This document shows, piece by piece, positions 33,833-37,682 of a DNA stretch of 64,000 nt. The DNA lies in the sequence record LC788706.1; one strand, written 5' to 3'. Origin of the DNA: Escherichia coli phage KS_S14. The translations under genes were made by a program, and so were the position numbers. The stretch's first letter is position 1. Each line of letters begins with the position of its first letter. The notes under the pieces were generated by a model. It saw only the letters and a program-made list of their open reading frames with translations. It made no database searches and was not told the DNA's origin.

Positions 33833-34567
33833 ATGAATAAAGCTATTATGAATATTTCCCGCAGCTTCCCGCATATTTCCCGCGTCATGATTTGGGATTT
33901 AGACGGCACTATCATTAATTCTTTCCACCGCGTAGCGCCTTGCTTTGATAGCGAGGGCAATTTAGATTTAAATAAGTATAAAAATGAAGCGTGTAAACAT
34001 CATTTAATAATGCAGGATACATTATTACCATTAGTTGAATACATGCGCCAGTGCATGAACGACGCAAATACTTTAAACATTATTTGTACCGCTCGACTAA
34101 TGAGCAAGTCGGACTATTATTATTTGCGTAAACAAGGGTTGCGCGGTCGTGGGGATAGTAATATCCGCGTTTTTTCCCGTGATACACTACACAAATATTT
34201 TGAGGCTGATAAAGTTAGCGAGATATACCACAGTAAGGACGCAGTTTATAAATCTTATTATTTTGAATTATTTAAACAGTTATATCCGAACGCTGATTTT
34301 ACAATGATTGATGATCATAAAGGTGTATTATCAGCGGCGGCATCATACGGATTTAAAACGCTGGACGCGCAAGCCGTTAACGATATTCTATCAATCGGCG
34401 TGGCATTAATAGGTGAAACCTTTATTGATGAATCCCTCGATGATGATAATGATTATCAATTCCTAGCCGACCGTTTAAAATTATGTTGGGAAGGTATGAC
34501 CGAGGAAGAACGCGCAGAATATAGTTGCAGCCCGCAACAATATATTGAGAAATTAAAAGTTGCGTAA
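33833..34567 (+). CDS. dmp: HAD-superfamily 5'-deoxyribonucleotidase (Dmp-like)
   Basis: 244 aa; N-terminal IWDLDGTI (DxDGT HAD motif); size recalled for T5 Dmp. Confidence 0.55.
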   Translation: MNKAIMNISRSFPHISRVMIWDLDGTIINSFHRVAPCFDSEGNLDLNKYKNEACKHHLIMQDTLLPLVEYMRQCMNDANTLNIICTARLMSKSDYYYLRKQGLRGRGDSNIRVFSRDTLHKYFEADKVSEIYHSKDAVYKSYYFELFKQLYPNADFTMIDDHKGVLSAAASYGFKTLDAQAVNDILSIGVALIGETFIDESLDDDNDYQFLADRLKLCWEGMTEEERAEYSCSPQQYIEKLKVA

Positions 34568-34584
34568 TAATTAAAGTTGAAACT

Positions 34585-34621
34585 GTTTCATCCTGTAATT
34601 AAAATGGTTGCAGGATGAAAC
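34585..34621 (+). promoter_or_regulatory. palindrome gtttcatcctg/caggatgaaac after last operon gene
   Basis: 11-bp arms; possible bidirectional terminator between convergent units. Confidence 0.4.
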
Positions 34622-34731
34622 AATTACCCTGCTAATAGTAACGGGAGTGGCGGTTAGCAGACTAAGTATTCTCCCCCAACCCACTGGGCACACCTCCATG
34701 TGTAATCTTATGAAATTTGGCAAAAGTCAAA

Positions 34732-34977
34732 TTAGCGCATAGAAGGGTCATCAAACCTGTATTCTGGTCTGAACTCACGGAATCTCTTCCGCGACGCCCG
34801 AGATCCATCCGACCACTCCCGCTCAAACTCCGCACGTTTCTCGTCAAACTTCCGCTCCCTTTCCGCAATCTCCCTCGTCACTCCCGCAATATATTTACGA
34901 TGCTTATTGATTGCCGCAGTCGTCCCGAAAACTCCCGCGAGTATCCCGATAATAAAAGCAATTATAATACTAAACAT
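34732..34977 (-). CDS. small membrane protein with charged C-terminal tail
   Basis: 81 aa; N-terminal TM helix; last gene of overlapping minus-strand cluster. Confidence 0.4.
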   Translation of the reverse strand: MFSIIIAFIIGILAGVFGTTAAINKHRKYIAGVTREIAERERKFDEKRAEFEREWSDGSRASRKRFREFRPEYRFDDPSMR

Positions 34978-35164
34978 CTAATTCCCTCTCAATTTGCAGA
35001 ATACGAGTGCTATCACAACGTTGCAGTAGTACTAGCTTTTCTAGAATAACTTGTTGTTGTTTCACTTGGGCTTCTAGAGTTTTTAGGCGGAGATACACGA
35101 CACGAGAGACAATAAGGATTACCCAGACTAATATTACTATTAGTGTAACTGCCACTTCCATCAT
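34970..35164 (-). CDS. small membrane protein with coiled-coil tail
   Basis: 64 aa; start overlaps upstream stop. Confidence 0.35.
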   Translation of the reverse strand: MMEVAVTLIVILVWVILIVSRVVYLRLKTLEAQVKQQQVILEKLVLLQRCDSTRILQIERELDV

Positions 35165-35267
35165 TTACGTTTCTCCGACAGTAGGGTTTCAATTCTAGCT
35201 AAGTGATTATCTAAAATACATTGACCAATAATCACAACCCCCAGTAGTGCAATAATTACCCATTCCA
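35160..35267 (-). CDS. very small membrane protein (35 aa)
   Basis: ATG overlapping stop of upstream ORF; hydrophobic; hand-found. Confidence 0.25.
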
Positions 35268-35395
35268 TTATATCCACCCCGCCATAGCTGCTAACCAAAA
35301 ACCTACGAAAATAAAGAATAGGATAGTTCCGAACCCAAAACTATTTATCCAACTCTCATACACCTCTCCGCGTCTATTCTTTCTTTTGTTTGACA
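35267..35395 (-). CDS. small membrane protein (42 aa)
   Basis: ATG with AGGAG RBS; basic N-terminus then hydrophobic helix; hand-found. Confidence 0.3.
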
Positions 35396-35572
35396 TATCT
35401 TTCATGCTCCTATAAGTGTGGTATTTGAAATATTCTATAACTTGTGCACAACCAACCGTGCCTATGAACTCCTAGAAGGACTTCTACTTTTCTTATATAG
35501 TGTTTTCTGCCAGTATACCGTCCAAGAAATAAAAAATTTAGTTTACTTGGATGTCTTTTTGTTTTATACTAA

Positions 35573-35839
35573 TTACAGGTAATTAGATTGCTCTAGTTTA
35601 AATTTACAATCACCGTATTTAAGGTCAAACTGACTGAGATCCCACCACCCAAACTTAGTACGGAGCTGTACTACTGGAAAGCGATCTCCCTTAATACGAA
35701 CTTTTTGAACCTTGAGGCCGTAATGTTCCTCTCCCGCACCACCAAAAGATTTTACAAATCCCATACAAAATGGTTTGGGGGCAGGTGCACAACCAGATAA
35801 CATAACTGTGGCAACTAGTGCAATCACAAACTTTTTCAT
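35573..35839 (-). CDS. lipoprotein, Llp-like (possible receptor-blocking lytic-conversion protein)
   Basis: 88 aa; signal peptide with lipobox LSGC; divergent from receptor-binding-protein candidate. Confidence 0.45.
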   Translation of the reverse strand: MKKFVIALVATVMLSGCAPAPKPFCMGFVKSFGGAGEEHYGLKVQKVRIKGDRFPVVQLRTKFGWWDLSQFDLKYGDCKFKLEQSNYL

Positions 35840-35924
35840 ATTTATCTCTCCATTTCTAATTTATGAATCTATTATAGCAAAATAGAGAGATGAAAGCAAA
35901 TACATTTTTATAATAGGAGATTAT

Positions 35925-37682
35925 ATGGGTTTTTTCGCTGGAAAGTATAGCGATGGTAAGACCGTACTATCTTTAAATACTGAATCTGGTGGTGACATTA
36001 ATCGTCACTATAGTCCAAGTAATAATAGTATTTTTCATAGTGATATGCCATTTGTTCTAGTTGATGGTACTTATGAGGCAGGATTAGGTGATGCCGGGAA
36101 TGGGTTTTTCGTATGTCAGATGCCTCCTGATATAGTAAATATTAAATCTAATGATCCTGGTAGAGTTATACTAACTGCTATTGAGATTAATGGTACTCAC
36201 AGAGCTTTTCTTAATGGTACTCAGAGTAAAGTTGGTCAAACTATAGTTGCCACTCAAGCAGACCCCTTTAGATCTTTTGCTAGTGTTTCTCAAACCAGTG
36301 GATTTGCATTTGGTAATAGTCTAGCATCTGGAACTTATAATTATAACCCATCGATAGGGCACGAAGAATCTATTTCTAGGAGTGGTACAGGTGGTACTAC
36401 GTTACATAGTACCTACCATGGGATAGTTAGGCCTGGTGCGGGAGCTCCTGTAGGTGTTACTGTTGCAGAAGCCTTTGCACAGTTAGGTTTTCCTACTAAT
36501 AGTAGCACAGTACCTGTAGATGGGAATAACCCGTATTATTGGGATCCTGGATGGATGTCGCCTCTAGGAGCAGCACATAGAGGGCATGATTGGTTTTATG
36601 TTTGCAACTCTAATATACGTGGATACGGTGGGGTTAGACAAGGGCTCCCAGGTAATGTAAATACTATGTACCACGACGGTGGGAACAGATTTGTTTGTAG
36701 GGGATCTACTACTAATTTAGCTAACCAGTCGGGTGACTCTACAATACTACAGGATTGGTATAATATAACCCCTACTAAGGTTATTTGGTATGTTCTTAAT
36801 TTAAGGTACTCTAATGGTGGAATGAGTATTTCAGGCAACCCCTTTACTGGTTCTGATATTCTTATATCTCCTTCTAATTTCATAATTAAAGGGGTAAGTC
36901 TCCCTAATACCGGGTATAAATTTATAAATCAGAATGCTTTTGGTAACCTAGGTTACCGTCCTGATATGGAGTATATAGGAAATAACGCAGCGTATACCGG
37001 GGTTTTTGGGGATACCACGGCAAGGTGTGAACTTGTAGGGTCTAGTAATGGAGGATTATGGTCTCCTGTAGACTATGGTGGAGCTAAATCCCAAATTAGC
37101 ATTTACAAATTCGGAGCTGGTAAGCAATGGTATGTAAACTCTAGGGATAATACTATCGGTAATGAACACGGGGTTGTTTGGGGACCATCAGCAGTTCCAT
37201 TACGACTTTTTGGTGGAAATGTAGGTAGCTCTTACATGGGGGATGATATTACTCCCAGCTACCCGGGAACAGGGGATAGATACGTTGGTTTATCAACTAT
37301 TGGGCTAGGTATACCGGGTGGCAATGCTACAGTAATTCTTACCACTGAAGTTATATCAGGTAACCTTAACTGTGCAGGTGTTCCTGCTAATACATGGAAT
37401 AACGGTGTGTTTCAAGTGCAAGGAAGAAGAGCATATAGCTATAGTAATGGAGATGCAATATTCCACCAGATTTTAACATTACCAGTAGGGTATTTAGTAC
37501 CTTTTCATACTACATCTGCTTTTAGATACACACCTAACAATGCCCTAAGTAGAAATAGTTTTATATACACTGCTAAAAATCTGGGGAATGGAAATGTAGA
37601 GTTAGGGGTAGTTATGCACGTAAGTTTAGGTAGTGCAGTTTTCCTACCGAGATTAAGAGTAACAGTTCAACGCCTTACCTAA
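35925..37682 (+). CDS. receptor-binding tail protein candidate (pb5/Oad-like)
   Basis: 585 aa; Gly/Asn/Ser-rich; adjacent to lipoprotein and terminal-repeat-like region; N-terminus MGFFAGK resembles recalled pb5 start. Confidence 0.45.

Follow-up and report, generated by a model that had tools for sequence, protein, structure and literature searches.

Escherichia coli phage KS_S14 (sequence record LC788706.1) carries four small overlapping open reading frames (ORFs), here called orfA to orfD, on the minus strand of the 64,000-nucleotide (nt) stretch that we analyzed, hereafter the window. They are almost certainly the orthologues of genes T5.159 to T5.162 of phage T5, in a phage of the Markadamsvirinae, and they encode tiny bitopic inner-membrane proteins that are under purifying selection. 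Their function is a separate and more tentative matter. We read the set as a putative receptor-independent, inner-membrane companion to Llp, the receptor-blocking lipoprotein encoded next to it, that would exclude superinfecting phage or otherwise protect the infected cell; we put the probability of this reading at roughly 0.3. The original prediction of the cluster, which was made from the DNA alone, described four minus-strand ORFs of 42, 35, 64, and 81 amino acids (aa) with overlapping stop and start codons, and all of this can be read directly from the sequence. Its coordinates were correct to within one base, the end at 35395 being one base short of 35396. What it missed is that the cluster is already annotated, as T5.159 to T5.162 in T5 and as Orf1 to Orf4 in BF23.

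The identity of the four genes rests on end-to-end matches to PHROG profiles: orfA to PHROG 8596 (E = 5.7e-32, profile positions 1-42 of 42), orfB to 6369 (2e-26, 1-35 of 35), orfC to 5851 (8.4e-31, 1-64 of 64), and orfD to 6447, "membrane protein" (2.7e-47, 1-81 of 81). In the T5 reference (NC_005859), T5.159 to T5.162 lie at 110826-111490, each annotated "contains single transmembrane domain." In BF23 the genes are named BF23_00172-175 in the genome and Orf1 to Orf4 in the hrs-llp fragment of 2006 (DQ097178). The T5 and BF23 orthologues agree with the genes of the window in their lengths, order, and overlapping junctions and in their site between llp and the right terminal repeat, and they are 75 to 97% identical to the products of the window. 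Nothing of substance differs between T5 and the window except the module of llp and the receptor-binding protein (RBP) gene, which is of the BtuB/BF23 type in the window and of the FhuA type in T5. The gene order downstream of llp is the same in T5, BF23, Bas33, phiR2-01, and 26 IMG/VR loci. The T5 and BF23 records already show the genes, their overlaps, and their single transmembrane (TM) helices, and the window adds nothing new to them. In our literature search, the names T5.159 to T5.162 were absent from the text of any paper found, and neither a toxicity screen nor a study of exclusion turned up for these genes; HIDEN-SEQ leaves out T5-like phages. Public records label the four genes variously as "tail fiber protein," "tail assembly protein," "receptor blocking protein," "receptor binding protein," and "H-N-H endonuclease," which appear to be propagated annotation errors.

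Cluster DNA is present in about 446 phage records. Megablast with the 1.4-kb region matched 332 phage records at identities up to 95%, nearly all of them from T5-like phages of Escherichia or Salmonella. By tblastn, orfA was found in 447 phage records (444 of them near full length) and orfD in 443; dmp, the deoxynucleotidase gene that flanks the cluster, was found at ≥80% identity in 443. Because the record counts match that of dmp, orfA and orfD are in essentially every Markadamsvirinae genome of the collection. The original prediction staked itself in part on conservation of the reading frames among relatives, and they are kept in about 445.

We compared frames, indels, and the ratio of nonsynonymous to synonymous polymorphism (pN/pS) across 35 loci. 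The frames are intact, all indels are multiples of three, and variable columns are biased toward third codon positions. Pooled pN/pS values are 0.16 for orfA, 0.22 for orfB, 0.53 for orfC, and 0.41 for orfD. By segment, the values are lowest in the N-terminal motif of orfA (0.11), the TM helix of orfB (0.15), and the juxtamembrane charged helix of orfD (0.25); they are higher in the TM helix of orfD (0.38), the TM anchor of orfC (0.67), and the tail of orfD (0.70). Amino acid motifs survive at 72 to 75% nucleotide identity and in a distant Enterobacter phage. orfA to orfD are genuine genes.

At the junctions, read off the sequence, orfA and orfB share 1 nt (TAATG), orfB and orfC share 4 nt (ATGA), and orfC and orfD share 8 nt (ATGTTTAG). 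Motifs resembling a Shine-Dalgarno (SD) sequence precede each start: AGGAG-N10-ATG for orfA, GGGGTGG-N5-ATG for orfB, GGAG-N8-ATG for orfC, and GAGGG-N6-ATG for orfD. An upstream candidate start for orfA, at 35405, is ATG in the window but ACG in the relatives L003 and L005, and the PHROG profile alignment starts at residue 4 of the resulting 45-aa form, that is, at the second ATG; therefore, we take the 42-aa form to be the gene. A 110-aa ORF on the plus strand (34717..35049) was rejected as not conserved because all three antisense frames carry 2 to 11 stops in every relative.

The coordinates of the genes and of the surrounding features are given in Table 1. Gene content and matches identify the region from about 33.8 to 37.7 kb of the window as T5-like phage genome. 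The flanks and orientation that had been predicted are as described, with dmp convergent with the cluster on one side and the llp/Cor lipoprotein gene on the other. The window's Llp is 97.7% identical to BF23 Llp, and its lipobox, LSGC, is readable in the translation.

TABLE 1 Positions in the window of orfA to orfD and of the features around them
Feature	Position	Strand	Description
BtuB-type RBP gene	35925-37682	+	585 aa
llp early promoter	35871..35900	-	TTTGCT (or TTGCTT), 17-18 nt spacer, TGcTATAAT (extended -10)
llp/Cor-type lipoprotein gene	35573..35839	-	BtuB/BF23 type; receptor-blocking, outer-membrane; PHROG 1119, E = 4.7e-25
llp/orfA spacer	35397..35572	-	noncoding; alignment of window, BF23, Bas33, and T5
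orfA	35268..35396	-	42 aa, start at second ATG; T5.159, BF23 Orf1, bas33_0191
orfB	35161..35268	-	35 aa; T5.160, BF23 Orf2, bas33_0189
orfC	34970..35164	-	64 aa; T5.161, BF23 Orf3, bas33_0188
orfD	34732..34977	-	81 aa; T5.162, BF23 Orf4, bas33_0187
Right terminal repeat edge (inferred)	34690		42 nt past orfD stop; from T5 alignment (T5 repeat annotated from 111532); distance in BF23 also 42 nt
Hairpin, candidate terminator of the llp-orfA-D unit	34581..34625	-	15 bp, 15-nt loop, U-rich stretch after
dmp-type deoxynucleotidase gene	33833..34567	+	pre-early; flank of cluster

That each product has one TM helix, as was first proposed, is borne out by a single hydrophobic segment per product, with Kyte-Doolittle means over 17 residues of 2.2 to 3.2. 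The orfA product has a basic N terminus, an invariant RGEVYExWxNxxGFG motif, and a C-terminal TM helix that ends in MAG and has a small-xxx-small pattern; AlphaFold2 models one helix over residues 4-38 (predicted local distance difference test score [pLDDT], 81). The orfB product starts with its TM helix, followed by an invariant GQCILDNHLARIE and a basic tail. In the orfC product, a variable N-terminal TM anchor is joined to a conserved helix ending in ERELDV; L, I, V, M, or F occupies 73% of the heptad a/d positions of this leucine-zipper-like helix versus 27% elsewhere. The orfD product has an N-terminal TM helix with a glycine zipper (G11, G15, G18, A22), then an NKHRxY hinge, a 35-residue stretch of the ER/K type that is 60% charged, and a variable disordered tail. 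AlphaFold2 gives one continuous helix for residues 2-69 (pLDDT 78) with disorder after it. The charged helix is suggestive of a length-tolerant, spacer-like rod, a single alpha-helix. Among orfD variants (P0017, P0074, P0079, and P0072), this helix has lost 7 or 17 residues in frame or has gained 4 by duplication (AEKR).

For orfC and orfD, the positive-inside counts are 0 K/R residues in the N-terminal flank and 4 in the C-terminal flank. By this rule, orfA is predicted to be N-in and tail-anchored, with its motif-bearing basic N terminus in the cytoplasm; orfB, orfC, and orfD are predicted to be N-out/C-in, with orfB less clear and probably the same. The predicted cytoplasmic parts would then be a short basic tail (orfB), the leucine-zipper helix (orfC), and the long ER/K-type charged helix (orfD), and the rule predicts that no more than 3 residues of any of the four are exposed to the periplasm. 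Helix-packing motifs of the small-xxx-small type are common to orfA and orfD.

Judged by their distribution, orfA and orfD are the universal core of the set, and orfB and orfC are optional add-ons. orfB was not found in phage smaug or in phiR2-01. orfC, which is missing in 7 of the 35 loci, forms 245 clusters at 90% identity, and its Tequintavirus and Epseptimavirus forms are only about 42% identical; it is the most variable and most dispensable member. Some Tequintaviruses have a tandem duplication of orfB: a 51-aa gene lies between orfA and orfB in Bas33 (bas33_0190, L035 2162-2317), L013 (2055-2210), and L015, and hhalign pairs it with orfB at a probability of 95% (E = 2.4e-8). Paralogy among orfA, orfB, orfC, and orfD was considered and was supported only for orfB and this extra copy. 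In the distant Enterobacter phage, KKP_3711 (L034 2134-2576), the only homologue of orfA to orfD is a 36-aa version of orfA, directly divergent from the RBP gene. There a 110-aa ORF of unknown nature comes next and overlaps it, and no recognizable llp is present.

Other ORFs come close to the two ends of the cluster in some relatives. In Epseptimaviruses (BD13, RN29, Sw2, and YZU-L1; L029 1289-1603, L030, L031, and L032), the llp/orfA spacer holds an extra conserved, acidic ORF of 103 to 104 aa, the 3' end of which runs over the orfA start in a different reading frame; the acidic ORF is the one that annotators call, and orfA is often omitted. ORFs of the homing-endonuclease type lie right after, or overlap, the end of orfD in Bas33 (bas33_0186, L035 1044-1583), L022 (2743-3216), and L028 (2700-3197). 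Where they are inserted, the last 14 or so residues of orfD are swapped for unrelated tails, of which there are at least five variants.

orfA to orfD do not travel with the receptor module. The Llp proteins of FhuA-type T5 and the BtuB-type window are unrelated, and yet the four products keep their 75 to 97% identity. When the llp/orfA spacers are aligned, T5 diverges from the BtuB-type phages until about 45 nt before the orfA ATG, which marks the end of the exchangeable RBP-llp module. Thus, orfA to orfD belong to the conserved backbone and not to the exchangeable module.

We also looked at the same slot, from the RBP gene to dmp, in phages of the Priunavirus and Sugarlandvirus genera of the Demerecviridae. 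Providencia phage PSTCR5 (L037 5322-5870) has single-TM ORFs of 29, 30, 46, 44, and 31 aa, and in Klebsiella phage pzk-kv7 (L036 4871-5554) the slot encodes two proteins, one of 74 aa with a TM segment and a coiled coil and one of 151 aa with a TM segment and a charged helix. All are unrelated to orfA to orfD, including the positional analogue in pzk-kv7, which has no sequence similarity to orfC, and no recognizable llp was noted in either locus. What is conserved in the slot among these genera is its architecture and not its sequence. A comparable array of tiny TM proteins was not evident in one Vibrio and one Aeromonas relative.

As read from the sequence, llp and orfA to orfD probably form one translationally coupled unit that runs from the llp early promoter to a conserved hairpin a short way into the right terminal repeat. 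We think so because the genes lie on the same strand behind an extended -10 promoter, no terminator was found by scanning, the stop and start codons overlap, and a conserved hairpin follows orfD. Upstream of the cluster, the sequence has no good sigma-70 promoter other than that of llp, whose -35/-10 pair is also annotated in T5 and in the BF23 record DQ097178. The promoter and terminator scan found no terminator-like site from llp to orfD, the llp/orfA spacer included. An internal promoter in that spacer was considered and dropped for the window, which has no consensus match there; T5 has a plausible TTTACA-17-TAGAGT at this place, and the BF23 record predicts a promoter.

The hairpin stays paired through compensatory changes, with C:G in T5 where the window and Bas33 have U:A, and the RNA fold of the 186-nt tail region has a z score of -2.3. 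Because the edge of the repeat falls 42 nt after the orfD stop, orfD is the last gene of the unique part of the genome. The hairpin lies about 65 nt inside the repeat, and consequently a copy of it is also present at the extreme left end of virion DNA. The first 110 nt or so inside the repeat (34581-34690, minus strand; also L002 4033-4150 and L001) are more conserved than the flanking coding DNA, with 92 to 98% column identity in 12 distinct sequences. This element at the repeat edge could be a terminator, a site for terminase or end processing, or both. An Rfam scan of 34300-36000 returned no RNA family, only noise. Directly 3' of orfD, a 42-aa ORF (MEVCPVGWGRILSLLTATPV...; 34571-34699, minus strand) is also open in T5 and BF23, among others. 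This ORF lacks an SD motif, runs across both the repeat edge and the hairpin, and shows conservation at every codon position; we regard it as a probable by-product of a cis-acting element and not as a fifth gene.

A unit read from the llp promoter and ending inside the right repeat would be expressed only after the second-step DNA transfer. Published RNA sequencing (RNA-seq) of Bas33 at 20 min postinfection gave values, in transcripts per million (TPM) for two replicates, of 219/127 for llp, 162/137 for the extra copy of orfB, and 462/408 for orfC (PMC13250531, Dataset S1). When daunorubicin blocked second-step transfer, all the Bas33 genes of the unit, orfA, orfB, and orfD included, fell to 0 to 1 reads (PMC13250531). 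The orthologous region is thus transcribed, at a modest level and not as a pre-early region, which does not refute the original prediction on the other point, transcription, on which it depended. In a CRISPRi-ART knock-down of T5, T5.159 to T5.162 were all scored "Not Fit" (scores of -3.6 to -4.1; Kolmogorov-Smirnov P values of 0.24 to 0.91), as was llp (PMC11879866). Because this screen also misses many probably important genes, "Not Fit" means no more than that growth in the laboratory does not depend strongly on these genes.

For the llp locus, "lytic conversion" is the one theme that has been established (PMC9586334). According to the companion reading, the orfA to orfD set would assemble in the cytoplasmic membrane and keep additional T5-like particles from introducing their DNA into the infected cell or damaging its membrane; lytic conversion would thereby have a second layer beside the outer-membrane receptor blocker Llp. 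We favor it because of the position of the genes behind the llp early promoter and their dispensability in the T5 knock-down; the shared "Not Fit" score also marks them, like llp, as accessory. Receptor independence follows from the high identity of the four products across FhuA and BtuB types that have unrelated Llp proteins, with the module junction upstream of orfA. We also count in favor of this reading the unrelated tiny-TM arrays in the same slot of Priunavirus and Sugarlandvirus phages. Since almost nothing of the proteins would be exposed to the periplasm, their site of action would be the bilayer itself or its cytoplasmic face; the pb2 channel inserted in the membrane and the A1/A2 transfer step are examples of possible targets.

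A more specific version of the companion reading, which we consider rather unlikely as it stands, has the products of orfA and orfD forming a putative inner-membrane complex for which orfB and orfC are exchangeable adaptors. As a general, receptor-independent partner of Llp, this complex would block pb2-mediated DNA entry of any T5-like phage, or else would act on the TonB-ExbBD machine that is common to the TonB-dependent receptors of these phages.

The cluster resembles several known systems in part. Llp/Cor lipoproteins (T5 Llp, BF23 Llp, and Cor of T1 and phi80) share its transcription unit and timing, and they too are small envelope proteins that are dispensable for growth. However, Llp carries a lipobox, resides as a lipoprotein in the outer membrane, and recognizes one receptor only, whereas the products of orfA to orfD have no lipobox, are predicted to be bitopic in the inner membrane, and do not covary with receptor type. 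T4 Imm and Sp, HK97 gp15, P22 SieA, and lactococcal Sie2009 are small, nonessential phage proteins of the cytoplasmic membrane that are thought to stop DNA at the inner membrane. They are the closest model for how orfA to orfD might work, without sequence similarity. These proteins have a periplasm-exposed domain or several TM segments, and each is encoded by one gene; in our case, 1 to 3 residues are predicted to be exposed and there are four to five separate tiny genes. The lack of homology to exclusion, holin, or toxin families, together with the near-zero predicted periplasmic part, argues against a close analogy with T4 Imm and Sp or HK97 gp15. The suggestion made in the original prediction, that orfA to orfD exclude superinfecting phage, block injection, or depolarize the membrane, is a reasonable hypothesis.

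Pfam, NCBIfam, and PADLOC scans at E ≤ 10 found nothing for orfA to orfC and only sub-threshold, architecture-level matches for orfD: LapA_dom (E = 1.3e-4), ZapG-like (0.13), and FtsL (0.032), all below the curated cutoffs. The best of these, to the LapA domain (PF06305), missed the gathering threshold (22.2 versus 28 bits) and aligned only the TM helix and the helix after it. What the LapA domain, ZapG/YhcB (PF06295), and FtsL (NF049847) have in common with orfD is a TM helix that leads straight into a charged helix, in a bitopic N-out/C-in arrangement. No described exclusion family was matched by orfA to orfD in Pfam, NCBIfam, PADLOC, or PHROG; only llp matched one, Cor (PHROG 1119). A word-indexed search of 5.8e9 proteins with orfD, orfA, and orfC as queries found only proteins of T5-like phages. 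An exhaustive hidden Markov model search of 1.84e9 representatives with an orfD profile gave six matches, five of them T5-like, and no bacterial relatives; the sixth (P0106, 7287 aa) is an artifact, the translation of a tandem repeat. PDB sequence searches with the cluster proteins found no relatives. As far as these searches reach, orfA to orfD have no homologues outside the T5-like phages.

A published difference in plating bears on the companion reading from both sides. A clone with llp only, made with a reverse primer ending at the second codon of orfA, lowered the efficiency of plating about 100-fold, whereas an earlier report on BF23 gave >10^6-fold, a difference that the authors called unexplained (PMC4728585). 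The earlier BF23 fragment, as deposited (DQ097178), includes Orf1 to Orf4. This gap is a weak lead for a companion role of the four genes.

Several points weigh against such a role. The gap between the clones may simply reflect expression level, and Llp alone suffices for receptor block (PMC4728585, PMC9586334). In Bas33 the per-gene RNA-seq values are erratic, with about 1 TPM for orfA and orfB and 22/13 TPM for orfD (PMC13250531, Dataset S1). We regard these values as probably an artifact of assigning reads to overlapping genes of 100 to 130 nt; the alternative is that expression of orfA, orfB, and orfD may be low or that there may be real internal processing or termination. No proteomic detection of the four products was retrieved from the literature. 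They have no sequence relation to Imm, Sp, SieA, or gp15-type proteins or to any family in PADLOC, Pfam, or NCBIfam. A periplasmic domain is usual in known injection blockers, and orfA to orfD are predicted to have essentially none. Finally, the universal conservation of orfA and orfD would suit a role in the phage's own cycle just as well as it suits exclusion.

That last point leads to an alternative that we consider possible though still improbable: that the four proteins modulate the phage's own membrane events through contacts between TM helices and through their cytoplasmic helices. They could set lysis timing, as antiholin-like partners of the T5.041 holin, or could reseal or re-energize the inner membrane after DNA transfer. 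A core of orfA and orfD in every Markadamsvirinae genome, whatever the host genus or receptor, fits a phage-encoded target, and the glycine-zipper and small-xxx-small motifs of the TM helices are typical of helix packing. The genes lie at the distal end of the unique DNA and so enter late during transfer, and loss of a timing regulator would be nonlethal, in line with "Not Fit." However, the T5 lysis genes (endolysin T5.040, holin T5.041, and Rz-like T5.044, at 19.9-22.9 kb on the T5 map) are about 90 kb away in another transcription unit, and orfA to orfD, which lie outside that cassette, match no holin or antiholin family. Nor do they look like i-spanins, which are N-in/C-out with a periplasmic coiled coil and pair with an o-spanin, a lipoprotein of the outer membrane: the helices of orfC and orfD are predicted to be cytoplasmic, and T5 has its separate Rz-like gene.

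We also think it unlikely, if still worth considering, that the proteins are directed at the host, in takeover or counter-defense. They would bind and then inhibit or redirect a conserved inner-membrane machine of the host, for example, TonB-ExbBD, FtsH/LapB, Sec/YidC, or a membrane-anchored abortive-infection sensor. The four genes are dispensable on a defense-poor K-12 host, and they lie at an end of the genome that gains and loses homing endonucleases and extra ORFs; the duplication of orfB and the turnover of orfC suggest an arms race. The characterized receptors of the family are all TonB-dependent transporters, and orfA to orfD are indifferent to which one is used. The sub-threshold matches of orfD to LapA_dom, ZapG-like, and FtsL models point the same way, but the Pfam match is below its gathering score and covers only the TM helix and the helix that follows. 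In addition, an invariant core of orfA and orfD is unlike most counter-defense genes, and PADLOC showed no relation of the four to known systems.

Membrane-depolarizing small toxins that aid host shutdown are a still more doubtful interpretation. Type I toxin peptides (Hok, Fst, Ldr, and TisB) consist of a TM helix and a charged tail, are toxic to the membrane when expressed, and are controlled by antisense RNA in cis or in trans. orfB (35 aa, a TM helix and a charged tail) and orfA resemble them in size (35 to 42 aa) and architecture, and hydrophobicity is strong, but there is no homology to toxin families. Unlike the toxin genes, orfA to orfD lie inside a translationally coupled operon with no antisense-RNA arrangement seen, antisense small RNAs having been looked for by the Rfam scan only. 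Host shutoff by T5 is pre-early, whereas these genes are silent until second-step transfer; early depolarization would harm an ATP-hungry lytic cycle; and the long conserved cytoplasmic helices of orfC and orfD argue for specific protein contacts. Lastly, that the ORFs are not genes at all but chance frames in a conserved noncoding or cis-acting region beside the terminal repeat is scarcely credible: two of them are very short, the adjoining repeat edge is a highly conserved noncoding element, and the Bas33 read counts for orfA and orfB are near zero, but variation is biased to third positions with pN/pS of 0.16 to 0.53, indels come only in multiples of three, each start has its SD motif, the antisense frames are closed, and the motifs persist in divergent relatives.

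T5 is a classical model phage, and for some 20 years these four genes, directly behind the well-studied llp and in every relative, have been functionally blank. Our analysis of them yielded, as by-products, a division into core (orfA and orfD) and optional (orfB and orfC) members, a predicted cytoplasmic-facing topology, independence of receptor type, and a conserved hairpin at the repeat edge. If a complex of the orfA and orfD products acts as proposed, T5 would have a two-membrane system of lytic conversion, with positional analogues in other genera of the Demerecviridae. If the set is an inner-membrane exclusion layer, or a modulator of DNA entry or lysis, it would be a missing component of the T5 infection model and would offer a way to study the passage of siphophage DNA across the cytoplasmic membrane.

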